A stretch of 64,000 nt of DNA, taken from positions 527,972-591,971 of the forward strand of contig CAWDVW010000007.1 in the NCBI GenBank assembly GCA_963805855.1, in the 5' to 3' direction. A model generated the notes under the pieces. It was not told the origin of the DNA, made no database searches, and saw only the letters and a program-made list of their open reading frames with translations. The DNA is from Candidatus Dadabacteria bacterium. Its GTDB lineage: Bacteria; Desulfobacterota_D; UBA1144; Nemesobacterales; CSP1-2. The position numbers were made by a program, and so were the translations under genes. This document shows, one piece after another, positions 30,388 through 59,876 of this stretch (position 1 is the first letter of the stretch; every line of letters starts with the position of its first letter).

Positions 30388-30388
30388 T

Positions 30389-30805: not shown

Positions 30806-30832
30806 TTAACCGTCCTCACTGCAATAAATAAG

Positions 30833-30976
30833 CTACCGACCTCCTTCATTTGAATCGAGAGAAGACTCGATAGACTCTAACTGATTTTTCAAGTCATGGT
30901 TTTTTCTAATAAGATAATAAACATATAGTAAAAGTACAATCCAAAAAATTACTTGCGACCAGAAAAGATAAGACAT
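30833..30976 (-). CDS. ccmD: CcmD-like small membrane protein
   Basis: The 47-aa ORF is below the track cutoff: MSYLFWSQVIFWIVLLLYVYYLIRKNHDLKNQLESIESSLDSNEGGR. It has one TM helix and the conserved position between ccmC and ccmE. Confidence 0.6.
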   Translation of the reverse strand: MSYLFWSQVIFWIVLLLYVYYLIRKNHDLKNQLESIESSLDSNEGGR

Positions 30977-30981
30977 CTGCT

Positions 30982-31641
30982 TTACCTTGCCTCCATTAAT
31001 CTAAGCCTAAGGATATTATCTTTCATGATTTCTAGTTCTACTCTATGCTTAAGTATCAACAGGAACAAAAAAGTAAAAGCTACTAGTGTAACGAGCAATG
31101 CGACCATCATCTCCGGCGCAATACCACCGCCACCGGATCCAAATACAACCGGGGAGATTCCACGCATAACTCTCGCCGAAATGTAAACAAGCGGCAAGTC
31201 TAAAAACGCGATAATCCCAAAAACAGCGGCAAATTTTGCTTTCCTTATATCATTACCCGCAGATGAACGCAGTATCATATAAACAATGTAGAGAATCCAG
31301 AGAATAAATGTAGTAGTGAGTTGCGGATCCCAAGTCCACCAAGTCCCCCAGATGGGTTTTGCCCAAATACTACCCGATACTAGTGTAAGCGTAATAAAAA
31401 CCACACCTATTTCAGCGGCAGAGTAAGCCAGGATATCCCAGTTACGACTCTCTTTTCTCAGATACTGTATACTTGCAACAAATACGATTACAAATGAAAT
31501 AGTGGCGACCCAAACGGTTCCCATATGGAAATAAAAAATTTTTTGGATCGGTCCCATAACCTTCTCGGTCGGCGCGTAAATAAATGAAGCATAGAGCGAA
31601 CCAATCATTGATATAAAAGTCAGAGCTAAAAGAAGATTCAT
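30982..31641 (-). CDS. ccmC: Heme exporter/handling protein CcmC
   Basis: 219 aa with 6 TM helices. WWD motif [12 protein letters not shown]. Confidence 0.92.
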
Positions 31642-36495: not shown

Positions 36496-36511
36496 TGGCA
36501 CATTTATTGCA
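36496..36511 (+). promoter_or_regulatory. Candidate sigma-54 promoter upstream of the octaheme-FeS-NrfD operon
   Basis: TGGCACatttaTTGCA, a near-perfect match to TGGCAC-N5-TTGCW, 124 nt before the ATG at 36636. Confidence 0.6.
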
Positions 36512-36635
36512 CTAACTTTAAACAAAGGAGCGATTTTCCAACATAAAAATTTTAAAAACGTTGTTACCCGTGAAAAAAATACTACAAGAAAAAGAGGTGG
36601 TAATTATTTTTTCATATCGTGAAACGGAGTAAGGT

Positions 36636-37385
36636 ATGCCTCAACAGATAAAATATCTTCTCGCCCTTTCTATTGTCTTAATTCTCATTTTCCTAATTGC
36701 CCGCCATTTTCTTATGCCCGCAAGTTTTGGGCAATACGGTCATTATCGTGCCGATTCATTACAATCTGCAGTATCCAGGGAAATTAAATATGGCGGGGAA
36801 ACTGCATGCAACGAATGCCATGATGATATATACATTTTAAAAGACAAATCATACCATCGGGGGGTTGCCTGCGAAGTATGCCATGGGCCTGCCTATGCCC
36901 ATACCCAGGACCCGTATGAGTACAAACCCCCTGCACCAAGAAAACGCGCCTATTGTCCGTTGTGTCATGGATATAATCCCACAAGACCCACAGGATTCCC
37001 ACAGATTGACCCTGTAAGACATAATCCCGGTAAGCCCTGCATTTTCTGCCATAATCCCCATGACCCGGTTCCTCCTGTTACGCCCCAGGAATGCGACCCA
37101 TGCCACACGCAAATCGCCCGGACTAAAATTGTCTCACCCCACGCACCCCTACCCTGTACTCGATGCCACGAAGCGAAGGAAGAGCATAAATTAAATCCAA
37201 GGATGGCTTTGCCGGATAAACCGAGGAATAGAGAATTCTGTGGACAGTGCCACGCACAGGAGGCAGAAAGTTCCCCTGAAATTCCGCGTGTGGACATCAA
37301 AACTCATGGCAACGGTTTTTTGTGCTGGGAGTGTCACTATCCCCATTATCCTGAAGCCGGCATAAAGGAGGATGAGAAGCAATGA
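36636..37385 (+). CDS. Membrane-anchored octaheme cytochrome c
   Basis: 249 aa with an N-terminal TM helix. Eight CXXCH motifs: CNECH, CEVCH, CPLCH, CIFCH, CDPCH, CTRCH, CGQCH, CWECH. GGAG RBS. Confidence 0.85.
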   Translation: MPQQIKYLLALSIVLILIFLIARHFLMPASFGQYGHYRADSLQSAVSREIKYGGETACNECHDDIYILKDKSYHRGVACEVCHGPAYAHTQDPYEYKPPAPRKRAYCPLCHGYNPTRPTGFPQIDPVRHNPGKPCIFCHNPHDPVPPVTPQECDPCHTQIARTKIVSPHAPLPCTRCHEAKEEHKLNPRMALPDKPRNREFCGQCHAQEAESSPEIPRVDIKTHGNGFLCWECHYPHYPEAGIKEDEKQ

Positions 37386-38194
37386 ATACTAAAGAGCTTC
37401 TTGATAACGTAACAAATAGGAGGAACTTTCTTAAAAGCCTCCTCATAATTCCCTCCGGGTTTTTTCTTGGCGGTCTTTTTTCTAAAATATTCCCCTTCTT
37501 CAAAAAGGCATCTCGTGAAAACACTTCCACATTGGAAAGTATTTATGGGAAATACAATCCGAAGGAGCACTACTATGCGATGGGTATTGACATCGACAAG
37601 TGCATAGGGTGTGGACGATGTGTAGAGGCGTGCAAGATCGAAAATAATGTTCCTCAGGAACCCTATTTCTTCAGAACCTGGGTGGAAAGATATACTATTA
37701 CAGTCGATGGAGAAACGAGTGTGGATAGTCCTGAAGGTGGAATGCATGGCTTCCCCGAGCCCGTTAGTGAGAAAGAAATCCTTCGCACCTTTTTCGTTCC
37801 AAAGTTATGTAATCAATGTGACAATCCACCCTGTGTGCAGGTCTGTCCTGTTGGAGCCACATACCAGACAATAGATGGAGTTGTCCTTGTTGATAAAGAC
37901 TACTGTATAGGATGTCGTTACTGCATTCAGGCCTGTCCTTATGGAGCGAGATATCTCAATCCTGAGACTAAGACGGCGGACAAATGCACATTTTGTTATC
38001 ACAGAATCGTAAAGGGATTGCAGCCTGCTTGCGTAGAGGTATGTCCCACTGGAGCAAGAACTTTTGGAGAAGTAAAACCACGCAACAATCCCCTTGCGCG
38101 ATTTGTCCGATTCAACAATATTGGTGTCTTAAAGCCCTATCTTAACACAGAACCCAAGGTCTACTATGCTAATCTAGACAAGGAGGTTACCTAG
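37382..38194 (+). CDS. Tat-exported 4x[4Fe-4S] ferredoxin subunit (NrfC/PsrB/DsrO/HybA family)
   Basis: 270 aa. Twin-arginine signal NRRNFLKS and four Cys clusters: CIGCGRCVEAC, CNQCDNPPCVQVCP, CIGCRYCIQACP, CTFCYHR...CVEVCP. Confidence 0.9.
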   Translation: MNTKELLDNVTNRRNFLKSLLIIPSGFFLGGLFSKIFPFFKKASRENTSTLESIYGKYNPKEHYYAMGIDIDKCIGCGRCVEACKIENNVPQEPYFFRTWVERYTITVDGETSVDSPEGGMHGFPEPVSEKEILRTFFVPKLCNQCDNPPCVQVCPVGATYQTIDGVVLVDKDYCIGCRYCIQACPYGARYLNPETKTADKCTFCYHRIVKGLQPACVEVCPTGARTFGEVKPRNNPLARFVRFNNIGVLKPYLNTEPKVYYANLDKEVT

Positions 38195-39397
38195 TTGGAT
38201 CCCTTACTTGAGAGACTTGCCATTTCCCTTAAAGAAGTTACAGGCTTCATCTATCCCAATGAGATTGAGCTCCATTGGAGCATCCTAATTGTTGTTTATC
38301 CCTATCTTACGGGTCTTGTAGCAGGGGCTTTTATTCTGGCTTCACTGGAAAGGGTTTTTAATGTTAAAGAGGTAGAGCCTACTTACCGGCTTTCTCTTCT
38401 CACTGCGCTTGCTTTCCTTATTGTCGCGCCTCTTCCTCTTGTGGCTCATCTAGGACATCCCGAACGGGCCTATGAAATTTTCCTCACACCCAATTTCAAG
38501 TCTGCTATGGCTATGTTTGGCTTTGTATATGGCTGGTATCTATTAGTTGTTCTTCTCGTGGAATTGTGGTTTGAGTACAGGAAGGATATCGTTGTCTGGT
38601 CTAACAAAGAAAGAGGGTTGAAAAGGTTTATTTATCTCATCTTAACCCTTGGGGCTTCAGACCTTTCAGAAAGATCTCTTCAGTTTGACAGAAAGGCTGC
38701 AAAATTTATAACCATCATAGGCATTCCATCCGCTTTCCTCCTTCATGGTTATGTGGGTTTTATCTTCGGCTCTGTGAAGGCGAACCCCTGGTGGAGCAGT
38801 GTGCTTATGCCAGTAGTTTTTTTGTTTTCCGCTATAGTATCGGGGATCGCGCTTGTGATGTTACTCTACATGGTTATTACTCTCTTTCGACGAAAAAGTG
38901 TGGATATGGCCTGTATGGATAAGCTCGCTTCCTTTTTGCTCTATGCAATGATACTGGACTTCTCACTGGAAAACCTTGACTTCATTCACCGCATTTACGA
39001 ATCAGAAGAATCCATAAAAATACTGTACCAGCTTTTAATCAGCAAGCTATTCATCAGTATGGTTGTGATTCAGATGCTGTTAGGAACTATAATTCCAATG
39101 GTCTTATTGGCATGGACAAAGTTGACGCGCCTTCCTGATGAGTTAAGGCGTCTTATCTACTTTGGGAGCGCAATTCTTACCCTGATAGGAATTTTTAGTA
39201 TAAGATGGAATGTGGTTATCGGGGGGCAATTATTTTCCAAGAGCTTAAGAGGGCTTACAACGTACAAAATGGAATTGCTCGGAATTGAAGGACTCTTGGT
39301 GGCGTTATTCTTTCTAACGCTCCCATTTATTATTCTGTACATCCTCGTTGCTCTGTTGCCGCCATGGAAGGAAGCAGAGGTTAAAATTGAAACGTAG
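38195..39397 (+). CDS. NrfD/PsrC-family quinone-interacting integral membrane subunit
   Basis: 400 aa with about 10 TM helices. Lies directly after the FeS subunit. AGGAGG sits 8 nt before the TTG start. Confidence 0.85.
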   Translation: MDPLLERLAISLKEVTGFIYPNEIELHWSILIVVYPYLTGLVAGAFILASLERVFNVKEVEPTYRLSLLTALAFLIVAPLPLVAHLGHPERAYEIFLTPNFKSAMAMFGFVYGWYLLVVLLVELWFEYRKDIVVWSNKERGLKRFIYLILTLGASDLSERSLQFDRKAAKFITIIGIPSAFLLHGYVGFIFGSVKANPWWSSVLMPVVFLFSAIVSGIALVMLLYMVITLFRRKSVDMACMDKLASFLLYAMILDFSLENLDFIHRIYESEESIKILYQLLISKLFISMVVIQMLLGTIIPMVLLAWTKLTRLPDELRRLIYFGSAILTLIGIFSIRWNVVIGGQLFSKSLRGLTTYKMELLGIEGLLVALFFLTLPFIILYILVALLPPWKEAEVKIET

Positions 39398-39604
39398 AAG
39401 TTTTTCAGTTAGGGGCTATAGGAAGCTAAAGATATATCTGAAAAGTGTGACTTAAAAATCCGTTTGATTTCGTAACGAAATGAAAGGATTCAGGTGAAAA
39501 AACATGTATAAATTTCCCGCACGTCTTGGTTTGATGGTCAAAGATACCGGTTGCACCAAGCTATTAGCTGTATGTTAAAGAAAAGGCAACATGTGATACA
39601 AGTT

Positions 39605-41611
39605 ATGCGATCAAATGAGCGATTGTTTCTCTTAACTCTTTTCTTTTTAATTTTTTGTCCCTTCACAGTTACTTCCGGTTCTGATGAGCTTAAAAGTGAA
39701 GACTGCCTTATATGTCACGAGACGATGGAGCCCTTGGTTGATAAAGGACTCTTAGATGCCTCAATCCATAGTGGTTTCGAGTGCACAGATTGTCATCAGG
39801 ACGTAACACAGATACCCCACGAAGAAGTCCCGAAGAAGGTTGATTGCTCTTCATGTCACCCAGAGATTGCGAAAGAATACTCTGAAAGTATACATGGTGA
39901 AGCAATAGCGAGGGGTGATCGCGATGCCCCAATTTGTACGAGTTGTCACGGCTCACACGGCATTCTTCCAAAGAATAACCCTAAATCTCATATAAACCCC
40001 TTGAATATTCCTGCGACATGTTCAAATTGCCATACAAGTGAAAAGATTACAAAGCAGCACCCACTCCCGTCACCGGAATTTATTGAGAGTTACAGTAAAA
40101 GTGTTCACGGCCGTGGCGTCCTTGTCAGTGGGCTAGTTGTCTCCGCGGTTTGTTCCGACTGCCATGGTGCGCATAATATAAAGCCCAAAAGTGACAAAAA
40201 CTCCGGTGTCTATAGGGCAAATATACCGCTAACCTGTAAGAAGTGCCATCTTGGAATCTATGATGACTATGAGAGGAGCATCCATGGACAGCTCTGGAAA
40301 GAAGGTTTCGAAGCGGGACCAGTGTGTACGACATGCCACAAATCCCATCAGATCACAGAGCCTGTGTCAGCTGGATTCAGGCTTCAGATATCTGAGGAGT
40401 GTAGTGGATGCCATGAGGCCAGAGCACTTACCTATCGGGACACATTCCACGGGCAGTCAACGTCTCTAGGGTTTGTTCAGGTCGCAAAATGCTCAGATTG
40501 CCATACCCCTCACCTAAATCTTCCAGAAGAAAACCCACTTTCATCAGTCTATTCCGGAAATCTCATCGACACTTGCGGCAAATGTCACTCCAATATAAAT
40601 AAGAAATTTATCACCTATGACCCACATGCCGATCCTCACGATAAGGATAGATCTCCTCTGCTTTATTACGTAAATACCCTCATGAATTGGCTTCTCATTT
40701 CAGTTTTTGGCTTTTTTGGCTTACATCTGGTTCTTTGGCTTCAGCGCTCAGCCGTAGCAGTAGCAAGGGGCGAGATTCCCACCCACTGGAGCGGCGACAA
40801 GTATGTTCGCCGGTTTAGCCTTCCCCACAGGATTACGCACGTTACTCTTGTCATAAGCTTCCTAGGACTTGCTGCTACGGGACTTCCACTCATGTATAAT
40901 TACACGGCGTGGGGAAAAATTCTCGAAGGAATTCTAGGCGGCGTTGAGGTTACAAGGTACTTCCATAGATTCTTTGCAATAGTGACATTGGGTTACATTA
41001 GTTTTCATCTCGGTTATATGCTAGACAAGATATTTTTAAAGGGCAACATAAGCCTTCTCTATGGTCCTAATTCTATGATTCCTAGGAGTGAAGACATTGT
41101 GGATCTCTACAAGAACATAAGGTGGTTCTTATACTTAGGTCCCCGTCCGAAACTGGACAGATGGACATATTGGGAGAAGTTCGATTATTTTGCGGTTTTC
41201 TGGGGAATACCGGTGATAGGCTTCTCCGGACTTATGCTCTGGTTTCCCGAGGTCTTTACAAAGATTCTTCCTGGCTACTTTCTAAATGTGGCAATGATAG
41301 TCCACGGAGAGGAAGCCCTTCTTGCAGTTGGATTCATATTCACATTCCATTTCTTCCACACCCATCTCCGACCTGAGAGTTTTCCGTTAGACACTGTCAT
41401 TTTTACCGGCAAAATACCTCTGGAAAGATTTATCGAGGAAAGACCCGAAGAATACAATAGGCTACTCAAAGAGGGAAGGCTTGAAGAAATCATTGTTGAA
41501 CCGCCATCACAACTTGCTATCATGTTCTCTAAGTGGTTTGGTTTTGCTGCACTAGGCGTAGGATTGATCTTGATCATCGCGATCTTTGCGACCTTCCTTG
41601 CTAATATTTAG
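39605..41611 (+). CDS. 11-heme cytochrome c fused to a C-terminal FdnI/HydC-type cytochrome b membrane domain (CbcL-like)
   Basis: Signal peptide MRSNERLFLLTLFFLIFCPF, 11 CXXCH motifs (CLICH ... CGKCH), then 4-5 TM helices with conserved His (PHRITHV, YFHRFF, IVHGEEALL, FHFFHTHL). The start is uncertain (track 39551, ATG 39572 or 39605). Confidence 0.8.
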   Translation: MRSNERLFLLTLFFLIFCPFTVTSGSDELKSEDCLICHETMEPLVDKGLLDASIHSGFECTDCHQDVTQIPHEEVPKKVDCSSCHPEIAKEYSESIHGEAIARGDRDAPICTSCHGSHGILPKNNPKSHINPLNIPATCSNCHTSEKITKQHPLPSPEFIESYSKSVHGRGVLVSGLVVSAVCSDCHGAHNIKPKSDKNSGVYRANIPLTCKKCHLGIYDDYERSIHGQLWKEGFEAGPVCTTCHKSHQITEPVSAGFRLQISEECSGCHEARALTYRDTFHGQSTSLGFVQVAKCSDCHTPHLNLPEENPLSSVYSGNLIDTCGKCHSNINKKFITYDPHADPHDKDRSPLLYYVNTLMNWLLISVFGFFGLHLVLWLQRSAVAVARGEIPTHWSGDKYVRRFSLPHRITHVTLVISFLGLAATGLPLMYNYTAWGKILEGILGGVEVTRYFHRFFAIVTLGYISFHLGYMLDKIFLKGNISLLYGPNSMIPRSEDIVDLYKNIRWFLYLGPRPKLDRWTYWEKFDYFAVFWGIPVIGFSGLMLWFPEVFTKILPGYFLNVAMIVHGEEALLAVGFIFTFHFFHTHLRPESFPLDTVIFTGKIPLERFIEERPEEYNRLLKEGRLEEIIVEPPSQLAIMFSKWFGFAALGVGLILIIAIFATFLANI

Positions 41612-41759
41612 AGCCTCTTCGAGAGACGGAGTTATACTAAATGTTGATAATTAATTTAGAAAACAAAGCACAGTCTTCGATATAAACATAAACTTGAAAC
41701 GCGGGTATATTTTTGGTGAGACTACTGATGAATCTTAGATCCACAAGGGAGAAGTTCAC

Positions 41760-43268
41760 ATGAGATTACCTAGGCTTGTCCACAATTGGTTAAGCTATGC
41801 CGGTGCGGCTATAGCGGCTCTGTCGCTAATTCTTTTTATCTTCCTATTTGCCCTTCACTCAATCGTTGATACCTCAGGAGTGCCGTACGCCGGGCTGATC
41901 ATCTTCGTACTTGTTCCGATGATTTTTGTTTTCGGTATGATACTCATCCCGATCGGCATGTTGCTGGAGTGGCGCCTCTGGAGAACCAAGCGTATAAGAT
42001 CATTACCGCGGTTTCCTATAATCGACTTAAACAACCCAAACCAACGGAATGCGACATTCATCTTTTTAGTGGGCTCAATCCTGCTCATACTTCTTGTTAC
42101 TGTTAGTGGTTACAAAGCCTATCATGTGACTGATTCGGTCGCCTTCTGCGGCACGCTTTGCCACAGCGTGATGCAACCCGAGTACACCGCTTATCAGAAT
42201 TCGCCCCATGCAAGGGTCCGCTGCGTCGACTGCCATGTGGGACCAGGGGCGGACTGGTTTGTCAAATCCAAAATGTCAGGACTATACCAGGTTTACGCGG
42301 TTCTCCTTAACAAATACCCGAGGCCTATTCCGGTCCCAATCGAGAGCTTACGCCCTGCCCAGGAAACATGTGAGCAGTGTCACTGGCCCGAGCAATTTTT
42401 TGGGGCCCAACAAAAAAGGCTGATCCATTTTTTGCCTGACGAGAATAATACTCGTTGGGATATTAATCTGCTTATCAAAATCGGTGGGGGCAGCCCTGAG
42501 ACCGGGCTGACCGAAGGAATCCACTGGCACATGAACATTGCCAATCGGGTTGAATATATCGCCACGGATGAGATCCGACAGGAGATTCCCTGGGTAAGAA
42601 TGACGAATTTGGAAACTGGAGAGGCTATCGAGTACATGTCAACCGAAAATCCACTTTCAGAGGAAGAAATCGGCAATGCACATATACGGAAGATGGACTG
42701 CATGGATTGCCACAACCGACCCACGCACATTTTCCGTTCCCCTAGCTACTCGATGAATCTCGCTTTAGGCACCGGCAAGATAGATCCTACGTTGCCCTTC
42801 ATTAAACAAACCGGCGTCAAACTGCTGTCTGGAAATTATGACTCCACGGAATTGGCGCTTGGGGAAATTGAGAGTGGGGTCAAAAAATTCTACCGGGACG
42901 GAAATTCTGACTTGACAAATCACAAAGAAGATTTGATTTCCGGTGCAATAGTGGGGATCCAGGACATTTATCAGAACAACTTTTTCCCTGATATAATGAA
43001 GGTGCGGTGGGACGTCTACCCGAATAACGTCGGTCACCTGAATTCCCCTGGGTGCTTTCGCTGTCACGATGGACTTCACAAGACTGCAGACGGAAAGATG
43101 ATCACGACTAAGTGTACTGCCTGCCATACTATCATATCACAGGGAACACCAGAGAATATGGAGTATTCAATGGAACCAGACGGGCTTGCTTTTCGGCATC
43201 CCGAGGATATCGGAGAGATGTGGAAGGAGATAAAGTGTAGCGACTGCCACACCGGCCAACTGCCATGA
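41760..43268 (+). CDS. Inner-membrane multiheme cytochrome c, 3 TM + NapC/NirT-like region + 7 heme motifs (ImcH-like)
   Basis: 502 aa with three N-terminal TM helices. FCGTLCHSVMQPEY...SPHARVRCVDCHVG is NirT-like. The heme motifs are CGTLCH (CX3CH), CVDCH, CEQCH, CMDCH, CFRCH, CTACH and CSDCH. Confidence 0.75.
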   Translation: MRLPRLVHNWLSYAGAAIAALSLILFIFLFALHSIVDTSGVPYAGLIIFVLVPMIFVFGMILIPIGMLLEWRLWRTKRIRSLPRFPIIDLNNPNQRNATFIFLVGSILLILLVTVSGYKAYHVTDSVAFCGTLCHSVMQPEYTAYQNSPHARVRCVDCHVGPGADWFVKSKMSGLYQVYAVLLNKYPRPIPVPIESLRPAQETCEQCHWPEQFFGAQQKRLIHFLPDENNTRWDINLLIKIGGGSPETGLTEGIHWHMNIANRVEYIATDEIRQEIPWVRMTNLETGEAIEYMSTENPLSEEEIGNAHIRKMDCMDCHNRPTHIFRSPSYSMNLALGTGKIDPTLPFIKQTGVKLLSGNYDSTELALGEIESGVKKFYRDGNSDLTNHKEDLISGAIVGIQDIYQNNFFPDIMKVRWDVYPNNVGHLNSPGCFRCHDGLHKTADGKMITTKCTACHTIISQGTPENMEYSMEPDGLAFRHPEDIGEMWKEIKCSDCHTGQLP

Positions 43269-43338: not shown

Positions 43339-43983
43339 TTAGGGTGTTATCTCTATTAATCCCTTTCGAATGGCAAATTTTATGAGGTCGGTTCGGGTGT
43401 GAATATTAAGCTTTTCCATTATGTGTGTTCGATGGCCCATCACAGTTTTAACACTCATGTAAAGCATATCAGCGATCTCATTGTTCTTATAGCCCTCTGC
43501 AACAAGCTTTAGCACCTGTTTTTCTCTATTAGTGAGGCTTTCGTAAGGGTCTTCTTCAATATCTTTATCCTTTCCTTGCAGGTACCCCTCTATCACAACA
43601 GGAGCGACCTCGGGATGCAAAAACGTACTGCCTCTCATCGCTGCTTGAATCGCGGATATAAGCTCTGTACTCGTTGCTTTTTTAAGGACATAGCCAGAAG
43701 CACCTGCTTTTAAGAACCTGTATATATATTCTTTATTATCATACTGGGTAAGGACAATGATTTTTGTCTTAGGGCAGGCATTTCGTATCTCCAGAGTGGC
43801 TTCGAGCCCACCTAGGCCAGGCATAGCGATATCCATTAGCACCACATCCGGCTTGACCTTTCGGGCTTTTTCTATAGCTTCCCTACCATCTGTGGCATCG
43901 CCCACGACGTCAATGTCTCCGCAACCCTCTAGAAGCGCCCTTATGCCTTCACGTATAAGGGCATGGTCGTCGGCGATAAGCAC
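43339..43983 (-). CDS. NarL/LuxR-family response regulator
   Basis: 214 aa. REC domain (LIADDH...VVLMDIAMPG...KAGASGYVLK) plus a LuxR HTH (LTNREKQVLKLVAEGYKNNEIADMLYMSVKTV). Confidence 0.93.
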   Translation of the reverse strand: MLIADDHALIREGIRALLEGCGDIDVVGDATDGREAIEKARKVKPDVVLMDIAMPGLGGLEATLEIRNACPKTKIIVLTQYDNKEYIYRFLKAGASGYVLKKATSTELISAIQAAMRGSTFLHPEVAPVVIEGYLQGKDKDIEEDPYESLTNREKQVLKLVAEGYKNNEIADMLYMSVKTVMGHRTHIMEKLNIHTRTDLIKFAIRKGLIEITP

Positions 43984-43999
43984 CTTTATATTACTGATT

Positions 44000-45856
44000 T
44001 TAGCTAACCTCCCTTAATGGAACCGTAACTACAACCCTTGTCCCAGATCCGGGTTGTGACTGTACTTCAAGCTTTCCATCCAGAAGTAAGACCCGTTCCT
44101 TCATTCCGAGAAGCCCAAGCCCCCGGCTACCCGACTCTGTACTTGATATACTCCCCAAATCAAATCCAATGCCATCGTCTTCAATCTCTAAACTAATGAA
44201 ACTATCTTCAATCTCCAGATTAATAATAACATTTTCCGCTTGAGAGTGCTTGGCTATATTCGTTATAGCCTCTTGAGCAACCCTAAATAGCACGGTTTCG
44301 ATCTGGGTCTGAAATCTTTTTTCAAACAGATCTCCTTCGTAGCGGAAATTAATGCCCAAGGGCTTGAGGCGTTCTTCTGCATACCACTTTATAGCAGCAG
44401 GAAGCCCGAGGTCATCAAGGATAGCAGGACGGAGGTCAAAAATCATGCGGTGTGTGCTATCTATAGCACGAAGTGCGAGTTTCCTTGCATTATCTATTTT
44501 CACCTCAAGCAACTTAGGTGCGCTCGCCTCTCTTATTGCTTCGAGGGAAATGAGCATTGCAGCAAGAGTTTGGCTCATTTCATCGTGTAACTCCCTTGCA
44601 ATTCTCTTCCGTTCTTCTTCCTGGGCTGAGATTATCCTACGGAGGAGTTCTCCTCGCTTCTCCTCCTTCTTCCTGAGTTCCTCATACAGAGAAAGGGTTT
44701 CTTTTGTTCTCTTATCCACCCTCCTCTCAAGTTCTCCTGTCCAGGCAGCGATTTCGTCCCGGGAATCCTTGAGCTTAATCCTCATTTCATCCAGGGTTTT
44801 GCCAAGTTGCCCGATTTCATCGTCTCCGGATATAGAAATAGGCTCAAAGAGATTGCCAGAAGCAATTCTCCGGGCAGACATTGTTAAAGATTTAACCGGT
44901 GCAATAACGCTCTGAGCTACCCCTAGGGTTAGAATTAGAGTGACTACAAACAATACGGCGCCAAACGTAAAAAAGCGCCTTTTCATACTCTCCACAGGAG
45001 CAAGGGCTTCCCTCTCAGACTGTCTGATATCGATTCCCCAAGGGATCTCGGAGAGAGGAGCAAAAGCCATGATCTCTTTTTTTGGCTCATCCTTTACGGC
45101 CTTCTCGTGGCAGTTGTGGCATGTTCCTACGCTGGGCTGGCCCGTCTTGATAAGTCCTGAAAGAGTTCCGCCATGGTCACTCTCCGTTAGGATGTTTTCC
45201 GGTTTCGTAGAGGCTAAAACAAACCCGTTTCCGTCTACTATTTCGATATACCCTGTCTCCCCAATCTTTACTGGACGGATAACCCTAGCCAATGCAGGTC
45301 CGGTAGGGTCAATTTCCCCTCCTACGACACCCAATGTTCTTCCATTCTTAACCATAGGGATCAGAGCGAATACCGCCTTTTTTGCTTGAGGCCTTATCTC
45401 GAATAAATTAGAAACGATAGGCTTCCCCGTGAGAATAGACTCTCTAACAGGGGGAAAACCCCCGAAATTTGATTCGGCAAGGGCTGGACGAGGAGGTTCT
45501 ATCCACAAGAGATGCCCTCTACCGTCAAGCAAAAACACGTTGGCGAAAATTGACCGCAATAATGCATTGTGAAGAGCGGCTTTCTCCGCTGCCAGGTCTT
45601 CGTCTGCCAGATTGACGCCCTTGGAGAAAGCAACTTCTTGAAGATACATAAGATTCTGCCTGATTAAATCCTCGAGATTGCTCGCAACTGTTTGGGCAAG
45701 CACGAGCCGCTCTCGAAGCATTTGGTTGACACTGTCGCGCATACTCAAAAAATCCGAGACACCAAGTATTGCTAGTATGGTCAGCACACCAGAGGCGCTG
45801 AGTAAGATTATTCTTCTTCGCAGGCTGGGTCTTTCAAAAAAGGATCTTAAGCCCAT
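44000..45856 (-). CDS. Sensor histidine kinase (HAMP + HisKA_3 + HATPase) with a periplasmic domain carrying a CXXCH heme-c motif
   Basis: 618 aa with two TM helices flanking a ~250-aa periplasmic domain that contains GTCHNCHEK (codons 45107-45121). H-box RIARELHDEMSQ. ATPase motifs GFDLG and GLGLLGMKER. Confidence 0.88.
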   Translation of the reverse strand: MGLRSFFERPSLRRRIILLSASGVLTILAILGVSDFLSMRDSVNQMLRERLVLAQTVASNLEDLIRQNLMYLQEVAFSKGVNLADEDLAAEKAALHNALLRSIFANVFLLDGRGHLLWIEPPRPALAESNFGGFPPVRESILTGKPIVSNLFEIRPQAKKAVFALIPMVKNGRTLGVVGGEIDPTGPALARVIRPVKIGETGYIEIVDGNGFVLASTKPENILTESDHGGTLSGLIKTGQPSVGTCHNCHEKAVKDEPKKEIMAFAPLSEIPWGIDIRQSEREALAPVESMKRRFFTFGAVLFVVTLILTLGVAQSVIAPVKSLTMSARRIASGNLFEPISISGDDEIGQLGKTLDEMRIKLKDSRDEIAAWTGELERRVDKRTKETLSLYEELRKKEEKRGELLRRIISAQEEERKRIARELHDEMSQTLAAMLISLEAIREASAPKLLEVKIDNARKLALRAIDSTHRMIFDLRPAILDDLGLPAAIKWYAEERLKPLGINFRYEGDLFEKRFQTQIETVLFRVAQEAITNIAKHSQAENVIINLEIEDSFISLEIEDDGIGFDLGSISSTESGSRGLGLLGMKERVLLLDGKLEVQSQPGSGTRVVVTVPLREVS

Positions 45857-46466: not shown

Positions 46467-47489
46467 TCATACGACAAAGAATAGCAGCACAATTAGCGAA
46501 AAAGCTGTTATACCGAGTCGAATATTTGGATACGGAGGTTTATAGATATTCTTTGGGCGTACCAACCTTGTTACTCTGTTCTCGATTCGTACCCTGTGCG
46601 AGTGACTCTCAATATTATGAGCTATTGATAAGATTCTACCTCTAAAGCCGGACTTTGATATTTGAGAAGACCCACCTGCTTTACCCATCCGAAAAATTTT
46701 TACTAAGCTTGAAGCGATAGCAAGCGGCTTCCCGGTAAACGTTGAAGCAAGATCATCGCAGAGTGTCTCTCGTTCATTTATGATTCTTCGAAATTCAACA
46801 AGGACAACCGGATTATAAAACATGATGAATCGAAAAGTGAATAATACCCAACCTGTGGCGTTATCCTTTCTCAATACGTGACCCATCTCATGGGCAAGCA
46901 CCCCTTGTAGCTCTTCAAGGTCGAGAGCCTCTATGAGAGAATAGGAGATGTTGATGGAACCGTTCGTCAGCCCTTTTGCATATATTATAGGCTCTTTCCC
47001 GTTTAATAGGAAAATCCTTGGCACAGCCATAGGTAACCTTTGCTCCAGATCTCTTATGACTCCATCAAGTTTAGGAATTGTACCACTCCTATAAAGGGTC
47101 TTATCGTCCTCTCCAGCATAGTGATGAATTAGTGTCGGAATAGCTTCTTGTACAACAAAAATAAGGGTCACAACTCCCAATAGGACAAGAGCTAAATGCC
47201 AAACCAAAATGCCGTCAACCAATCTTAAAAGTAGCCATTGGTTTATATCGAAGATAGCCATATCTTCACGGAACTCCGAGCTTCCGCGATGAGGATAGAT
47301 CAGTTGATACAGAGGGAAAGATAAAACCGGAATCAGTATTACGAGACTACGAAACCTGATTTGTAGGAGCGGACGCTCTTCATGCCATATTTTTAATAAT
47401 ACTTCAATAACAAGGGCTATGATAAAAGAATGCAGTACACACTGAAACACATATTGACTAAAACTAAATTCCAAAAAATCCATTTCCAT
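46467..47489 (-). CDS. M56 (BlaR1/MecR1-type) membrane zinc metalloprotease/sensor
   Basis: 340 aa with 4+ TM helices. HEXXH motif LAHEMGHVLRKDN and ERETLCDDLA. No adjacent BlaI-type repressor. Confidence 0.75.
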   Translation of the reverse strand: MEMDFLEFSFSQYVFQCVLHSFIIALVIEVLLKIWHEERPLLQIRFRSLVILIPVLSFPLYQLIYPHRGSSEFREDMAIFDINQWLLLRLVDGILVWHLALVLLGVVTLIFVVQEAIPTLIHHYAGEDDKTLYRSGTIPKLDGVIRDLEQRLPMAVPRIFLLNGKEPIIYAKGLTNGSINISYSLIEALDLEELQGVLAHEMGHVLRKDNATGWVLFTFRFIMFYNPVVLVEFRRIINERETLCDDLASTFTGKPLAIASSLVKIFRMGKAGGSSQISKSGFRGRILSIAHNIESHSHRVRIENRVTRLVRPKNIYKPPYPNIRLGITAFSLIVLLFFVV

Positions 47490-47546: not shown

Positions 47547-48341
47547 TTATACATTATCCCCTTTTTCGTCCCCAGCAAGTTCTTTATTCTCTTCATTCTT
47601 AGTCCAGGATTTAATAACCTCTGCGTATTCTAAAGGGTGATCTTTTTCCATTCTCTCTCGTGAAATCTTTCCAGTGAATATACTCGGGTCGAATGGAAAT
47701 ACATCGGGGTTAAAATGTGCTCCATACATATGCCAGATAATTATGACGAGAAAGGCAAGCAGAGCCTCATAACCGTGGACAGTTTCCGCTACAGGTATGA
47801 TCACTCCCGGTAAGAATTTTGTAAAAAAGATCGGAAAGTAGAGGACAAAGCCTGAAACGATCATAAACATCCCGCCGAGTACAAGTCCCCAATATTCAAA
47901 CTTTTGCCTAAAATCGTAGCGACCGAATTTAGGGTGCTCCTCGGAAAGCCCCATGTAGTATCTAAGCATTCCCACGGCATCGTTGAAATCCTTAAATGTT
48001 GGGATTATCGAAGGTCGTACCTTTCTCAGAAGAACTAATAGAGTAATACGACCCAAATGCCAAACGACCAGTGCGGCAAACAGAATACCAAACATGCGGT
48101 GGATAAAACGAGTCATGTCAATACCCCCAAGCCTCGTTATAATCCATGCTGACCACCGGGCTTCAAAAAATTCCTGAGGGAGCCCTGTAATCACGAGCAT
48201 GATAAAAAAAATCATAACCAGAAGGTGCTCTACCCTTTGAAGGAGACTAAATCTTACAAACTTATCTGGAAGATACATTCCCCGCTGCATAAACTCATTT
48301 TTGGAATTATTACCTTCTTCAAGATTTATCTCATCCTTCAT
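47547..48341 (-). CDS. FdnI/HydC-type membrane cytochrome b (stand-alone paralogue of the C-terminal domain of 39605..41611)
   Basis: 264 aa. RFSLLQRVEHLL, FIHRMFGI, AETVHGYEALLAF, WHMYGAHFNPDVFPFDPSIFTGKISRERMEKDHPLEY. The sequence is colinear with the CbcL-like C-terminus. Confidence 0.85.
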   Translation of the reverse strand: MKDEINLEEGNNSKNEFMQRGMYLPDKFVRFSLLQRVEHLLVMIFFIMLVITGLPQEFFEARWSAWIITRLGGIDMTRFIHRMFGILFAALVVWHLGRITLLVLLRKVRPSIIPTFKDFNDAVGMLRYYMGLSEEHPKFGRYDFRQKFEYWGLVLGGMFMIVSGFVLYFPIFFTKFLPGVIIPVAETVHGYEALLAFLVIIIWHMYGAHFNPDVFPFDPSIFTGKISRERMEKDHPLEYAEVIKSWTKNEENKELAGDEKGDNV

Positions 48342-48369: not shown

Positions 48370-49440
48370 TTATCTATTTGTCGCCACACGCCAGACATGA
48401 AGCAAGATATGGAGCACTAGCCCGCCTATGGTAAAAGAAATAAATATCTTATAAAAGAGCTTTATATAATACACGAGGGGAGCCTTGTCAGGGCTCGGTT
48501 CGTAGTGAGAAAGCCACGCCCCAGGAAAGTTTGTGGTGGCATCCGGGTGGCATTTTTTACACGTGTGTACAAGATTCGCTTTTAGAACAGGAGAATCTGG
48601 GTCACTTACTTTGGTAATATTGTGAACGCCGTGGCAATCGGTACAAACAGGCTTCCAGGAGCTGATATCCTCTGTTTGGCTCTTATAGAATGTAACACTT
48701 ACCCCATGAAAGTCCTTGAGATAAGTTTCTAAAACCTTAGTCGAGAGCCCATATTTCTTCATGAGTGCTTCATTTGCATGACACTTCCCGCATAGCTCAG
48801 GGGTTTTTAACAGAAAGGTACGGGTTCTCGGATCGTCTATATTATGCGCATGGTGGCAATCACTACACACCGGAACGTCCGGGTTGTTTTCTTCAATTAA
48901 AGCCCTCCCGTGAACGCTTTTGCTATAAATTTCGAAGATCCCGGCATGGCACTTCTTGCAGGTTTGGGAAATTCTCGCTTTCGGCCTATCGGGCCTTGTT
49001 ACATAGTGGGCTCCATGACAATCAACGCAGACAGGCGCCGCTGTATTTCCATTTGATAGGAGACTGTAATGAATGCTCTCTAAGGTTTTTGTATAGTTGG
49101 CAAAATGACACCGTTTACAACTCTGATAGAGAGCTAAGCTGTAGGCGCGTCTGTTTTCGAGCTCCTTTTCGGGGTGTGGATAATCTGATATGTCGCTATG
49201 ACAGTCGGTACAGGCCAGTTTGTCACCATGAATCGATGAGGCGAAATTACCTGGGTTCACGTAGAGGGACATTTCCTCTTTGCTCGGCAATACAATACTG
49301 AGGCTTGGATCACTATGACACGCTAGACAAAACTCTACTTCCTCTGACAACTTCGCTTCGGGCTCAGCCAGAGCAAAAATGGGAAATATCAAGACCAAAT
49401 TAACATATATGAAGATCCGCGTCAGCGTAGCTAAAGACAT
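48370..49440 (-). CDS. Nine-heme cytochrome c with a C-terminal membrane anchor
   Basis: 356 aa with a signal peptide and nine CXXCH motifs (CLACH, CTDCH, CKRCH, CVDCH, CKKCH, CSDCH, CGKCH, CTDCH, CKKCH). C-terminal TM helix. Confidence 0.88.
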   Translation of the reverse strand: MSLATLTRIFIYVNLVLIFPIFALAEPEAKLSEEVEFCLACHSDPSLSIVLPSKEEMSLYVNPGNFASSIHGDKLACTDCHSDISDYPHPEKELENRRAYSLALYQSCKRCHFANYTKTLESIHYSLLSNGNTAAPVCVDCHGAHYVTRPDRPKARISQTCKKCHAGIFEIYSKSVHGRALIEENNPDVPVCSDCHHAHNIDDPRTRTFLLKTPELCGKCHANEALMKKYGLSTKVLETYLKDFHGVSVTFYKSQTEDISSWKPVCTDCHGVHNITKVSDPDSPVLKANLVHTCKKCHPDATTNFPGAWLSHYEPSPDKAPLVYYIKLFYKIFISFTIGGLVLHILLHVWRVATNR

Positions 49441-55935: not shown

Positions 55936-56733
55936 TTAAGACAAGGATTTCCTATAATTGTGAATCACAAATGCTGAGATAAAAAGAAACACGATGAGGA
56001 TTCCTCCAAAGATCTTCCTGCGTTTGATTATAGTTTCATCGTCCTGTACATCATTTTCGATCTTGTCAAGATCACCTGTAATCGTGCCCGTCTTGTCTAT
56101 TATCAAGTCTACCGAAAGAACATGTGTTAAACGGTGAAACTGGTTTCTATTTGCAAAAAGTGCATCTTCAATGCTTTTAGTATCAAAACCCTCTTCCTTA
56201 ACCTTTTCAATAGTTTTATTAAGCTGGTTTATCTTCATCTCCGTTCCTTCCATAACAAATTTTATCTTTTTTGCCCGTTCATATGTGTGACACCTTGAGC
56301 AATTCTCTTCGTTTATAAGACCCAAGGTAGCCCTTTGCTGATGGTGAGCGGTATGGCATGTAGTGCAAACTGGGCGTTTCTGCTTCTCGGTTAGCCAATG
56401 AGGACTCTTCATATAGTTCTCCATAACTGCCACATGGCACTTTCCACAGAACTGAGGAACCTCATCTTCTGTAGGGGCCCCAACAAAACCTTCCTCCGGG
56501 CCCATCGCGTCCATATCCTGTAAATCAGGGTTACCACCGTGACAGTTGTTACAAGATATGCCATTTTGTTTATGAATGCTTTCTTGCCAAAGCTCTACAG
56601 GCTTTGCCAGGTCATCTCCCATCTCGGTATGACAAGAAATGCAGGAGGTTTCCGGTTCTTGGGCAACAACCTGAGCGACAAAAGCAAAGATAAGCAGCAA
56701 AAAAGAAAAAAGGAGTAAGTATTTGACAAACAT
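55936..56733 (-). CDS. Pentaheme cytochrome c with a C-terminal anchor (terminal gene of the Rieske/cyt b operon)
   Basis: 265 aa with a signal peptide. Five motifs: CISCH, CNNCH, CGKCH, CTTCH, CSRCH. C-terminal TM helix. Confidence 0.85.
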   Translation of the reverse strand: MFVKYLLLFSFLLLIFAFVAQVVAQEPETSCISCHTEMGDDLAKPVELWQESIHKQNGISCNNCHGGNPDLQDMDAMGPEEGFVGAPTEDEVPQFCGKCHVAVMENYMKSPHWLTEKQKRPVCTTCHTAHHQQRATLGLINEENCSRCHTYERAKKIKFVMEGTEMKINQLNKTIEKVKEEGFDTKSIEDALFANRNQFHRLTHVLSVDLIIDKTGTITGDLDKIENDVQDDETIIKRRKIFGGILIVFLFISAFVIHNYRKSLS

Positions 56734-56745
56734 TTCGTCTCCTTT

Positions 56746-57801
56746 TTATAGAATTTTTCCTAAAACTGTAAGGGCTAAAAAGACCAAAACCCCAAGAATT
56801 GCCAGCGTCAGGAAAACCGGCCTTCTTAGCGGATTTCTTTCACGGCCAACATCGATTAGAGGTAAGAGAATAAGAAAGAGAATTAGCAAAATCTGTATAA
56901 ACACACCAAGAAACTTATTCGGAATTAGCTTTAGCATCTGGTAGGTTGCAAGAAAATACCACTCAGGCTTTATATGAGGAGGTGTAAAAAATGGGTCCGC
57001 CCGTTCCAAGGCATCCGTTGGGAAATAAAGCTTCGGGTAAAAGAAGACAAAAATGAAAAGGATCCCGAGGAAAAAGTATATAACCTTCACGTCCTCTAAC
57101 GCAAACTGGGGCACGAAGGGCACCTTTTTCACCTCTTCCTTCTTAGTCCCAGGAGGATAGGATATACCCGTTCTCCTCATAAAGAACAGATGCATTGCGA
57201 CCAGCATTAGAAACAATAAAGGCACGACTATGACATGCAGGGTGAAAAATCTACCCAACGTTGCTTGCCCTACACTTTCACTGCCTCTTACCCACTTTAC
57301 TAGTTCATTGCCAATATAAGGCACCGCACTTATCGTATCCGTTGCAACTGTAGTAGCCCAATAAGAGAGCTGGCTCCAAGGAAGGAGATAGCCCGAGAGT
57401 GCTGCTAAAAATCCCAAAGACAAGAGCACGCAGCCCGAGATCCACTGTAGCTCTCTGGGCTTCTTATAAGAGCCCATAAAAAGAGTGCTCGCCATATGGA
57501 GAAAGAGTACAGCTATGAATATGTTCGCTGCCATCGCATGAACCCTTCTAATTAACCACCCGAATGGGACCCCGTTAGTTATATAGGTGACACTATCAAA
57601 GGCTTTGTCTACATCGGGGATATAATATATGAGAAGCAAGATCCCGGATATAAACTGGATTAAAAGCATTGCGATGAGTGCGGCGCCCATAGAGTACCAA
57701 AAACTCAGATTCGCCGGGACCATATAGCCGGTGAGATTACTTTTTATTACCTCTCTAATTCCAACTCTTTCATCGATCCAATCAACGATTTTCTTCAACA
57801 T
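56746..57801 (-). CDS. Cytochrome b of a bc1/b6f-type complex (fused b + subunit IV)
   Basis: 351 aa. WYSMGA, RRVHAMAANIF..FLHM, LPWSQLSYWATTV, FFTLHV, and the Qo-site PEWYFL motif. Confidence 0.93.
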   Translation of the reverse strand: MLKKIVDWIDERVGIREVIKSNLTGYMVPANLSFWYSMGAALIAMLLIQFISGILLLIYYIPDVDKAFDSVTYITNGVPFGWLIRRVHAMAANIFIAVLFLHMASTLFMGSYKKPRELQWISGCVLLSLGFLAALSGYLLPWSQLSYWATTVATDTISAVPYIGNELVKWVRGSESVGQATLGRFFTLHVIVVPLLFLMLVAMHLFFMRRTGISYPPGTKKEEVKKVPFVPQFALEDVKVIYFFLGILFIFVFFYPKLYFPTDALERADPFFTPPHIKPEWYFLATYQMLKLIPNKFLGVFIQILLILFLILLPLIDVGRERNPLRRPVFLTLAILGVLVFLALTVLGKIL

Positions 57802-57802
57802 A

Positions 57803-58246
57803 TCAAGCCTCTGAAAGTTTTATTTCATTCTCCACAACTTTAACACCGTAGTGGGGAAGTGGCTTGGGAGGCGGTCCTGAAATGACGTTTCCATTGGCGT
57901 CAAATCTACCCGCATGACAAGGACACAAAAATATACCCGCGTCCTTTTCCCACTGTACAATACATCCAAGGTGTGTACATACGGCTGAAAAGGCTCTGAT
58001 CTCGCCCTTATAATCGATGACAACTGTTGGGTGACCGAAAGCAAGTCCCGTTTTTGATCCTTCTTCTGATACAGCCGACACCATTATGGGTTTACCCGAA
58101 GGGTTTACAAAAACCTTTTCTGTCCCGGCCGTCGATTTCGGTAAAAGGTATGCTACCGTAGGAGGTATCCAGCTTAACGCTGTAAGACCGAATATCCATT
58201 TAACGACTGTGCCAAAGAAATCCCTTCTCCCGATTTCATCGCCCAT
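57803..58246 (-). CDS. Rieske [2Fe-2S] subunit
   Basis: Tat-like signal [12 protein letters not shown]. Cluster boxes CTHLGC and CPCHAGRF. The ATG at 58246 has an AGGAGG RBS. The track ORF extension to 58333 overlaps the upstream gene. Confidence 0.9.
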
Positions 58247-58251
58247 GGGGG

Positions 58252-59499
58252 TTACCTCCTTAGTCTTTGATATGTTATCTGCAGTAAAAACAAAACTACC
58301 AAAACTGCGGCGAGTAAAGCAAACCAACCCCATATGCCTATACTTCCTTTCCCAATTTTTATTAATTGTTCATCCTCTGCCATCTCTACCTTCATTATGT
58401 TTGGTTCGAGGAAAGGAACCCTGAATTCATAATACAAGTAAGATTCAACCAATAGTGTCTCGCCAATTCCTTTCGGAAGAGGAAAGGTAAACTCCTCTCT
58501 CCGCGTCTCCTTTGGCCTGATTCGGTTATCGCTCTTTACAGACGTAGCTTTTAGAAACATATCTTTAATATTTTCTTCCGGAATCTCTCTTCCCTCCCCA
58601 TCAACAAGAACTCGTCTGTATACGATCTCCTCACTTTCAAGCTCCTGTCCCCTGGGGTCGAGAAGTTTAACCGTGAGTATTACTTTACGCGAAGGAATGC
58701 CAGTGGGTAGAGAGTGCCCCGCTTCTGCGTTCGTTACATAGACTACCACCGAGATATGGTCATCGGCTTTTTCGACAACCTGGGTCAGCGTTGCCGCCTT
58801 GGTTATATTTATCTGAGAATGTCCACCTAGAAATTTATGCGCAGTTACATTATGTTGGGTTTTTGCAAATTCAGGATTCACAATAGGGACCCCAAACTCC
58901 TCTGGCATATGACAATTCTGACATTGGATCCCCTTTTCCGCATAAGGTCCCCGTTTCCATTCCGTATACGTACTCATCACGTGAAATCCATTTTCGTTTA
59001 CGACTTCATGACATCCGGCGCAGAATTCAGCCTTTAGGTGGATCTCAGAAAAATGATTCTGATGTCCTATTTCCAAGTCGCTCTTGATTGGACCTCTTTT
59101 TACAAAGCCTAGCGCAAATTCAAATGGCTCTTCCTTACTTAGATCCACGCCTTTTATGGTATGACAAAAATCACATGTAACCCCTTCCTTGGTTATGGGC
59201 TGGGTGAGGTTATAATCGCCGGTAACCCTCACTGTAGGAGCATGACATTTAAGGCAGAATCTTCTATTTTCTTCCCTCTCGACTTCATTATAAAAACCGA
59301 GAAAAACAGGGTCGCTGATGGAAGAAGCATGTAAAGAATTTTTCCACTGCTTATGTATCATTGTATGGCAGGAGCCACAGACCTGACTCTCTGTGTACCC
59401 TTCCTTTTTAACAATGGGATGGTCCGTCACGGCTCCTACAGTGACTGTACTAACGAGCAGGGCTAGAAGAACGTTTATAAGATCAGATTTCTTGAGCAT
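58252..59499 (-). CDS. Pentaheme cytochrome c (cytochrome c554-like multiheme family) with a C-terminal anchor
   Basis: 415 aa. Five motifs: CGSCH, CLKCH, CDFCH, CAGCH, CQNCH(MP). [23 protein letters not shown] is typical of that family. C-terminal TM helix. Confidence 0.85.
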
Positions 59500-59648: not shown

Positions 59649-59664
59649 AGCAAGTTCCATGCCA
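59649..59664 (-). promoter_or_regulatory. Candidate sigma-54 promoter (minus strand) for the multiheme-Rieske-cyt b operon
   Basis: The minus strand reads TGGCATggaacTTGCT, 149 nt upstream of the ATG at 59499. Confidence 0.55.
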
Positions 59665-59856: not shown

Positions 59857-59876
59857 CAGTGATACTCTTCAAGAAG

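Follow-up and report, generated by a model that had tools for sequence, protein, structure and literature searches.

The described systems closest to the one reported here are inner-membrane cytochromes that draw on the quinone pool. Proteins of the ImcH family carry three transmembrane helices, an atypical CX3CH heme motif adjoining the membrane domain and between five and nine CX2CH motifs, and those of the CbcL/MtrH/MtoC family span 416–1034 aa and 3–23 hemes (Zhong & Shi 2018, PMC6295460). CbcS is a membrane-anchored tetraheme cytochrome of the NapC/NirT type (10.1101/2025.04.14.648717), and in Melioribacter roseus and MBNT15 a quinol:cytochrome reductase function has been proposed for modules made of a multiheme cytochrome (MHC), an iron-sulfur (FeS) protein and an NrfD subunit but lacking the molybdenum subunit (PMC9386147). 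Here, we analysed a 64-kb stretch (64,000 nt, hereafter the window) of contig CAWDVW010000007.1, in which five co-directional open reading frames (ORFs) at 36636–43268 (+) form three modules, namely an octaheme–FeS–NrfD trio, an 11-heme cytochrome c fused to a cytochrome b (c-b fusion) and an ImcH-type protein. The source is a Dadabacteria-like uncultured bacterium, because the 90% clusters of the window proteins include Candidatus Dadabacteria bacterium CSP1-2 and metagenome-assembled genomes (MAGs) labelled Thermodesulfobacteriota. We propose, at a probability of roughly 0.68, that the three modules of the block act in parallel in the inner membrane, as menaquinol:periplasmic-cytochrome-c oxidoreductases that differ in mechanism.

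The initial annotation had recognised three quinone-pool architectures in this block, and these proved real: all five ORFs lie at the coordinates it gave, their domains and motifs were confirmed, and a role as quinone-pool modules is judged plausible. It had also reported the lack of a molybdopterin subunit, in agreement with our Pfam search of the window ORFs, which found no molybdopterin domain in any ORF of the block or adjoining it. What was observed directly is which genes are present, how their domains and motifs are arranged, which families they belong to and how far the neighbourhood is conserved. The first two genes overlap by 4 nt and the third begins at the base directly after the stop codon of the second, while ~153–207 nt separate the NrfD gene from the c-b fusion and 148 nt separate the c-b fusion from imcH. 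This gene content is not due to chance, because the same genes recur in the same order in relatives. None of the five proteins reached the cut-off of an NCBIfam equivalog model, and the names TtrB, DsrO, NrfC, NrfD and NrfH were rejected as assignments because their NCBIfam scores fell under the cut-offs. Interpretation of the block as a mobile island was likewise rejected, since its GC content is unremarkable and the flanking genes are syntenic in relatives. Scans of the block for sigma-70 promoters and terminators did not exceed shuffled expectation, so no transcription units are called, and an Rfam scan of the 64-kb window returned zero RNA families.

The last of the five genes encodes a 502-aa heptaheme inner-membrane cytochrome (41760..43268, +) whose membership in the ImcH family is well supported by transmembrane segments, heme motifs, Pfam and sequence identity; what had been called ImcH-like is thus a true member of the family. 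Hydropathy placed its helices at residues ~14–32, 45–63 and 98–116, and a CX3CH motif at 130 is followed by CXXCH motifs at 155, 204, 314, 432, 452 and 493, all of which were invariant in 26 homologs. This layout is that of GSU3259, the G. sulfurreducens ImcH, for which motifs at 132, 156, 205, 311, 428, 448 and 486 and helices at 13–35, 45–67 and 100–122 have been published (Table S3, PMC6295460). Alignment with the ImcH of an Oryzomonas sp. (Geobacteraceae) MAG (L034; L numbers denote homologous loci) covered 501 residues with 3 gaps and gave 48% identity, and the window protein had more than 8000 homologs of ~500 aa that were 55–65% identical and came from many phyla. Residues 96–186 matched Pfam Cytochrom_NNT (PF03264, E 3e-11), the NrfH model TIGR03153 scored 73.7 bits, and residues 104–209 matched NrfH in the PDB (2J7A); a PDB sequence search found no structure of ImcH or CbcL. 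The quinol site proposed for G. sulfurreducens ImcH comprises the heme-1 His/Gln pair (H137, Q179), K173, Y188 and E127 (preprint 10.1101/2023.05.03.539133). Mapping by spacing and by the Oryzomonas alignment, with GSU3259 compared through its published motif table, placed H135, Q177, K171, Y186 and D125 of the window protein at the spacings of H137, Q179, K173, Y188 and E127, and K171 and Q177 were invariant in the 26 homologs. By analogy, the window ImcH has a putative role at high potential.

Directly upstream lies the c-b fusion (39551..41611, +; motifs, Pfam and TIGRFAM), in which 11 CXXCH motifs precede a HydC/FdnI-type diheme cytochrome b membrane domain, as in the CbcL/MtrH/MtoC family. 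The protein is 686 aa as listed and, judging from a 97%-identical homolog of 672 aa, its true start is probably at 39593 (GTG) or 39605 (ATG). The b domain scored 29.9 bits against the 30.1-bit cut-off of Ni_hydr_CYTB (PF01292) and matched the FdnI model TIGR01583 at E 1.9e-10. All 11 CXXCH motifs, as well as H392, H430, H472, H486, H585, H600 and H605 in the membrane domain, were invariant in 26 fusion homologs. Homologs number in the thousands and include one set of ~650–690 aa that is ~55% identical and a second of ~920–950 aa that is ~43% identical and has 19–20 hemes. The fusion had been taken to be undescribed; however, KRT67040.1 from Dadabacteria CSP1-2 is catalogued as a CbcL/MtrH/MtoC homolog of 670 aa with six transmembrane helices and hemes at 36, 62, 82, 112, 140, 184, 212, 242, 267, 297 and 325, and Table S2 of the same study lists further 11-heme homologs (Zhong & Shi 2018, PMC6295460). 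The heme spacing of the window fusion is identical to that of KRT67040.1, an ortholog in which six helices are listed where hydropathy found 4 strong segments in the window b domain. Overall, the 11-heme fusion is a catalogued, uncharacterised family member.

Calling the fusion CbcL-like therefore holds for the family as a whole, but its heme spacing lies nearer to MtrH/MtoC than to Geobacter CbcL. When compared through published motif tables, the membrane-proximal spacings were 30, 25, 30, 28 in the window fusion, 31, 25, 30, 28 in MtoC/MtrH and 28, 43, 28 in GSU0274 (CbcL), and a second fusion paralog type that often stands beside imcH elsewhere ends in 42, 28, like GSU0274 (43, 28). This suggests, as far as heme-spacing tables can tell, that the window fusion is not the closest counterpart of Geobacter CbcL. 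The same spacing is one argument for a rival explanation, that one or more of the modules run in reverse as quinone reductases fed by Fe(II), a syntrophic partner or a cathode, as has been proposed for MtoC. The CbcL/MtrH/MtoC family is indeed found among Fe(III) reducers as well as Fe(II) oxidisers (PMC6295460), and NrfD complexes can run either way (preprint 10.1101/2023.05.03.539133). However, ImcH homologs are known only in electron-exporting organisms (PMC6295460), the block is tightly linked to imcH, and heme spacing is weak evidence on the direction of flow, so that we consider reversal improbable.

Apart from the window, tandem paralogs of the c-b fusion were often seen upstream of imcH or downstream of the trio (L002, L016, L031, L035, L044, L045, L067, L078, L133 and L139). 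In one paralog type the b domain was 42–52% identical to that of the window fusion and usually went with 19 hemes, and in the other it was 25–34% identical, with 11–13 hemes. The c and b parts were apparently separate ORFs in L031, L040, L045, L067 and L082.

The block opens with the trio. Its first gene encodes a 249-aa octaheme cytochrome c (36636..37385, +; CXXCH count, hydropathy and Pfam) with CXXCH motifs at 58, 79, 107, 135, 153, 174, 202 and 230 and a single N-terminal hydrophobic helix (residues 8–26) that is either an anchor or a signal. The heme spacings of 21, 28, 28, 18, 21, 28 and 28 form a tandem 4+4 repeat, i.e., a duplicated tetraheme unit, which was kept in 24 of 29 octaheme homologs; a further four of the 29 ORFs clustered with the octaheme (L086–L165) were ~147–162 aa long with four CXXCH motifs each and possibly represent a tetraheme form. 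Pfam matches were to Cytochrome_C7 and c3_2, with no match to NapC/NirT (PF03264). Identification as an enzyme of the Otr, MccA or octaheme nitrite reductase type was rejected on account of size (249 aa, ~26 residues per heme) and of the absence of CX15CH and CXXCK motifs; the match to octaheme nitrite reductase chains was weak, to the start of the chain and over part of the length.

The second gene encodes a four-cluster FeS protein of 270 aa (37382..38194, +; Pfam and motifs) of the PsrB/NrfC/TtrB type, predicted to be exported by the twin-arginine pathway from its NRRNFLK motif and containing 16 Cys in four ferredoxin-type motifs. It matched Fer4_11 (E 2e-28), its best NCBIfam models were TtrB and DsrO (both under cut-off), and PsrB (2VPW_B, E 2.5e-48) was the nearest solved chain in a PDB sequence search. 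The third gene encodes a 400-aa integral membrane subunit of the quinone-interacting NrfD family (38195..39397, +; PF03916, E 2e-43) with ~9–10 hydrophobic helices and no cofactor motifs. More than 8000 homologs were found, the best listed being ~70% identical and including Aminicenantes, Zixibacteria and Dadabacteria, and the NrfD of CSP1-2 that adjoins KRT67040.1 falls in the 90% cluster of the window NrfD. Sequence searches of the PDB, with the single sequence and with a profile, gave no match for the NrfD subunit. Its AlphaFold model (predicted local distance difference test score, pLDDT, of 74) had its best Foldseek matches to ActC chains of alternative complex III (ACIII), namely 8K9E_C, 6F0K_C, 6BTM_C and 6LOD_C, with TM-scores of 0.65–0.75 and E down to 2e-8.

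Trio loci were collected through NrfD in a metagenome collection, and the synteny fractions here and below refer to the best 80 loci of each scan (genome or metagenome) rather than to a census. Among the 80 metagenome loci, the octaheme and FeS genes lay upstream of NrfD wherever upstream sequence was present. Among the 39 loci flanked by 4 kb or more, 13 had a further quinone module, comprising ImcH in 5, a CbcL-type b domain in 5 and Rieske/cytochrome b genes in 7, the last directly downstream of the trio (e.g., L096, L118). A recurrent order of trio, Rieske, cytochrome b, MHC and ImcH was found in L096, and L155 held the same genes in another order. Judged by such neighbourhoods, quinone modules cluster combinatorially in many uncultured lineages.

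These features of the trio also bear on the possibility that the modules serve soluble periplasmic acceptors by feeding reductases or cytochrome c oxidases, like ACIII, NrfBCD/NrfH or bc complexes. The NrfD subunit models as ActC of ACIII, which feeds oxidases, the N-terminal part of ImcH is NrfH-like (the TIGR03153 and 2J7A matches above), the trio is usually unaccompanied in its diverse host lineages, most of which are not metal reducers, and genes for mono-heme Cytochrom_C/FixO-like proteins lie near the ccm genes of the window. Nevertheless, no terminal reductase or oxidase gene was found in or beside the block, experiments tie the ImcH and CbcL families only to extracellular acceptors, and the same window holds a multiheme cytochrome with MtrC/MtrF domains. 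We therefore regard service to soluble acceptors as unlikely.

The initial annotation had also stated that these systems are encoded at separate loci and that this organism had consolidated them. Separate loci hold for G. sulfurreducens only. We collected 80 imcH-centred genome loci (45–54% identical; Ignavibacteriota, Acidobacteriota, Bacteroidota, Zixibacteria, KSB1, Binatia and others), of which 53 were well flanked (at least 2.5 kb on both sides). A fused c-b gene lay within 600 nt of imcH in 23 of these 53, from many phyla, and within 6 kb in 32 of 53, almost always directly upstream on the same strand, and two c-b paralogs in tandem were common. In published tables, likewise, several Desulfuromonadales and Syntrophus MAGs have imcH and cbcL under neighbouring locus tags or accessions (PMC6295460), and in Desulfuromonas acetexigens the ImcH and CbcL accessions are consecutive and both proteins are expressed on electrodes (PMC12133095). 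The pairing of c-b fusion and imcH is thus common in public data, yet we found no paper that discusses it. The synteny search that had been suggested showed the pair to be widespread and the full block to be rarer: the complete three-module order was found in L084 (ImcH 81% identical), L082 (75%) and CSP1-2-type contigs (L166–L167), as well as in a Methylomirabilota MAG (L040), and partially in a Bacteroidetes MAG (L024). Consolidation was accordingly not unique to this organism, as the block is inherited in the Dadabacteria lineage and has the same order in the Methylomirabilota MAG.

This conserved pairing could mean that the c-b fusion and ImcH form one functional unit, either a heteromeric complex or an obligate redox-loop pair, optionally with the trio. 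The adjacent same-strand order in 23 of 53 loci extends over more than 10 phylum-level groups, and the pair is co-expressed in D. acetexigens from consecutive accessions (PMC12133095). On the other hand, the G. sulfurreducens genes are unlinked and their single deletions give separate, potential-specific phenotypes, purified G. sulfurreducens ImcH works alone (preprint 10.1101/2023.05.03.539133), and ~40% of imcH loci lack a c-b fusion within 6 kb; a functional unit of this kind is highly improbable in our estimation. A broader version, to which we give only a slim chance, is that the pair and the ACIII-like trio act together (as a complex, as an obligate redox loop or "gearbox", or from one transcript), unlike their independent counterparts in Geobacter, in which case the trio, with its NrfD ~70% identical across phyla, would be a major uncharacterised quinol:cytochrome c oxidoreductase of uncultured anaerobes.

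Relatives of the window block carry a radical-SAM gene and a 47–53-aa ORF between NrfD and the fusion, and a 160–163-aa ORF upstream of the octaheme gene; by gene content the window block is a streamlined version, because it lacks both insertions. The insertions were located at 7778–8260 in L086, at 7767–8258 and 11287–12620 in L166, and at 3021–3503 and 6429–7826 in L082. The 160–163-aa ORF of the relatives is Cys-rich and membrane-anchored, and their radical-SAM/small-peptide pair looks like a cassette for maturation or for a ribosomally synthesised and post-translationally modified peptide. The window and L084 lack both insertions and have a sigma-54 motif upstream of the octaheme gene instead.

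If the block does encode three parallel quinol oxidases, each would take electrons from menaquinol by a different route. The trio would work as a minimal ACIII, in which quinol is oxidised at the ActC-like NrfD subunit and electrons pass through the four FeS clusters to a membrane-tethered octaheme wire. In the c-b fusion, the two b hemes would carry electrons across the membrane to an 11-heme periplasmic wire; for this type, a quinol site on the N side has been proposed (preprint 10.1101/2023.05.03.539133). In the ImcH-type protein, quinol would be oxidised on the P side, at an NrfH-like site by heme 1, and electrons would run down the seven hemes, with electroneutral coupling of the kind demonstrated for Geobacter ImcH, which oxidises menaquinol electroneutrally and reduces PpcA (preprint 10.1101/2023.05.03.539133). 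Together with two further putative modules nearby, the three would discharge one quinone pool to periplasmic and outer cytochromes, with driving forces and energy yields that differ from module to module. The outward direction of electron flow, the use of extracellular or insoluble acceptors, a division of labour by potential and co-transcription of the block are all steps that we infer. G. sulfurreducens imcH and cbcL are both constitutive, with the switch set by potential, which is compatible with co-location and co-expression from one block. Within the window, ccm genes, hemA, hemD and the MtrC/MtrF-domain cytochrome lend support.

Several observations weigh against three co-expressed modules for extracellular respiration. 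Gaps of ~150–200 nt ahead of modules 2 and 3 would allow for more than one transcription unit, and the trio is mostly found alone (26 of 39 loci) and so need not be tied to extracellular electron transfer. In addition, the fusion looks nearer by spacing to MtrH/MtoC, of which MtoC is linked to Fe(II) oxidation and hence to quinone reduction, and no outer-membrane porin-cytochrome conduit was seen inside the window. On the supporting side, porin-cytochrome operons have been reported in Dadabacteria (FeGenie, PMC7005843).

A sigma-54-type (−24/−12) promoter-like site, TGGCACATTTATTGCA, lies at 36496..36511 (+), 125 nt upstream of the first ATG, and exactly matches TGGCAC-N5-TTGCW, being TGGCAC-N5-TTGCA. 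Allowing no more than one mismatch, the window contains seven such sites (25204, 36496, 52572, 52802, 59649, 59841 and 61998) against 1.6 expected. Several are intergenic, upstream of a bc-complex operon, the MtrC-like cytochrome, an SBF transporter, citrate synthase and hemA. The site ahead of the block is conserved in L084 but is absent from the 96–98%-identical L086 and from L082, where an extra ORF stands instead, and overall it was present in 2 of 40 homologous loci. The sigma-54-type promoter proposed for the block consequently stands as a perfect consensus, but one that is conserved in a single relative (L084) and absent from 38 of the 40 loci. No gene for an enhancer-binding activator (BccR-like) was found in the window, and a plasmid search with the promoter region gave no match.

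Convergent with imcH are a LuxR/NarL-type response regulator (43339–43983, −) and a dCache-HAMP-HisKA_3 histidine kinase (44000–45856, −), both identified by Pfam; this two-component pair adjoins imcH in relatives too, and it may be linked to regulation of the block. The kinase has a single periplasmic CXXCH (CHNCH, residue 246) between transmembrane helices at 16–34 and 295–313, which is CHSCH in L084 and L166, and may be a heme-c redox or ligand sensor. A BlaR/M56-like peptidase follows (46467–47489, −), and beyond it lies a split pair consisting of a 264-aa HydC-type cytochrome b (47547–48341, −; Pfam) and a 9-heme cytochrome c with a C-terminal transmembrane helix (48370–49440, −; Pfam, heme and helix counts), a putative fourth quinone module of the CbcL family or CbcBA-like. 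A fifth quinone module, with Rieske and cytochrome b genes between two pentaheme cytochromes c, occupies 55936..59499 (−; Pfam and heme counts); both pentaheme cytochromes have terminal transmembrane helices, and a sigma-54-like site lies at 59649–59664 (−). Elsewhere, homologs of its Rieske/cytochrome b genes follow the trio (L096, L118), with ImcH at the same locus in L096 and L155. In all, five putative quinone-interacting modules fall within ~23 kb.

The MtrC/MtrF-domain (II/IV) multiheme cytochrome, identified by Pfam, has no fewer than 8 CXXCH motifs, follows a sigma-54-like site (61998), runs off the end of the window (62116–64000, +) and is a possible outer-surface cytochrome. Genes for heme supply and cytochrome c maturation are represented by a fused uroporphyrinogen-III methyltransferase/HemD (24004–25533, +), HemA (59859–61187, +) and, upstream of the block, CcmF, CcmE-like and CcmC-like genes (28387–31641, −), the last accompanied by FeoB and a DtxR/FeoA-type regulator.

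All three modules belong to known, widespread families, and the block is a neat instance of them, not a system of a new kind. What remains is of mild interest: in Dadabacteria the three modules form a compact version, the c-b/imcH pairing is broad, and the trio is highly conserved yet uncharacterised. For Candidatus Dadabacteria, a lineage without a cultured representative, the block offers a genomic basis for electron export that is branched and depends on potential, and inner-membrane exit cytochromes of the Geobacter type are commonly clustered outside Geobacter. The order of c-b fusion followed by imcH and the syntenic trio could serve as guides for annotating electron transfer in metagenomes and as targets for biochemistry.

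Compared to known systems, the trio shares its three-subunit design with Geobacter Cbc4 (CbcSTU, GSU0068-0070) and with the modules of Melioribacter roseus, MBNT15 and Methanoperedenaceae, in which an anchored multiheme cytochrome c is combined with a four-cluster FeS protein of the periplasm and an NrfD subunit free of cofactors, and a catalytic molybdopterin subunit is lacking. Homology to CbcSTU, which had been suggested, does not hold for the cytochrome: that of the window is a 4+4 octaheme that resembles c3/c7 and does not match NapC/NirT, whereas CbcS is a tetraheme of the NapC/NirT type. The likeness is known from architecture alone; the trio may work like Cbc4 by analogy, and membership is not claimed. 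With respect to alternative complex III (ActABCDEF), the predicted fold of the trio NrfD best fits ActC, the N-anchored octaheme is analogous to ActA and the FeS protein to the ActB2 part. However, the ORFs in and next to the block provide neither the molybdopterin-like ActB1 domain nor ActD, ActE or ActF, the trio cytochrome has eight hemes and the Act cytochrome five, and sequence identity between the NrfD subunit and ActC is only 16–19%.

Geobacter Cbc5 (cbcEDCBA), with its sigma-54/BccR-dependent cbcBA, resembles the window in having a sigma-54-type promoter ahead of an inner-membrane cytochrome cluster, and the split c and b pair is laid out like CbcA/CbcB. The window differs in having no BccR-like enhancer-binding protein and in that its split cytochrome b and fused b domain are related, at 36% identity for the L084 ortholog of the former; of CbcB and the b domain of CbcL, by contrast, Joshi et al. 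report that they lack sequence homology. Like CbcL/MtrH/MtoC (GSU0274, Rfer_4073 and Daro_1404), the c-b fusion joins an N-terminal multiheme c domain to a HydC/FdnI-like b domain with ~6 transmembrane helices and conserved His residues; it has 11 hemes, as opposed to the 9 of GSU0274, and its spacing near the membrane is like that of MtrH/MtoC and unlike that of GSU0274. The third module is the closest to its Geobacter counterpart in layout: the window protein and ImcH GSU3259 (sensu Levar 2014 / Zhong & Shi 2018) have the same three transmembrane helices, CX3CH after the third helix, six CXXCH motifs, a length of ~500 aa and NapC/NirT homology, and conservation extends to the Lys, Gln and Tyr near heme 1, with Asp in place of Glu127. 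Zhong & Shi listed no ImcH for Dadabacteria, and whereas the GSU3259 gene stands alone, the window imcH lies directly behind a c-b fusion and an octaheme–FeS–NrfD trio.

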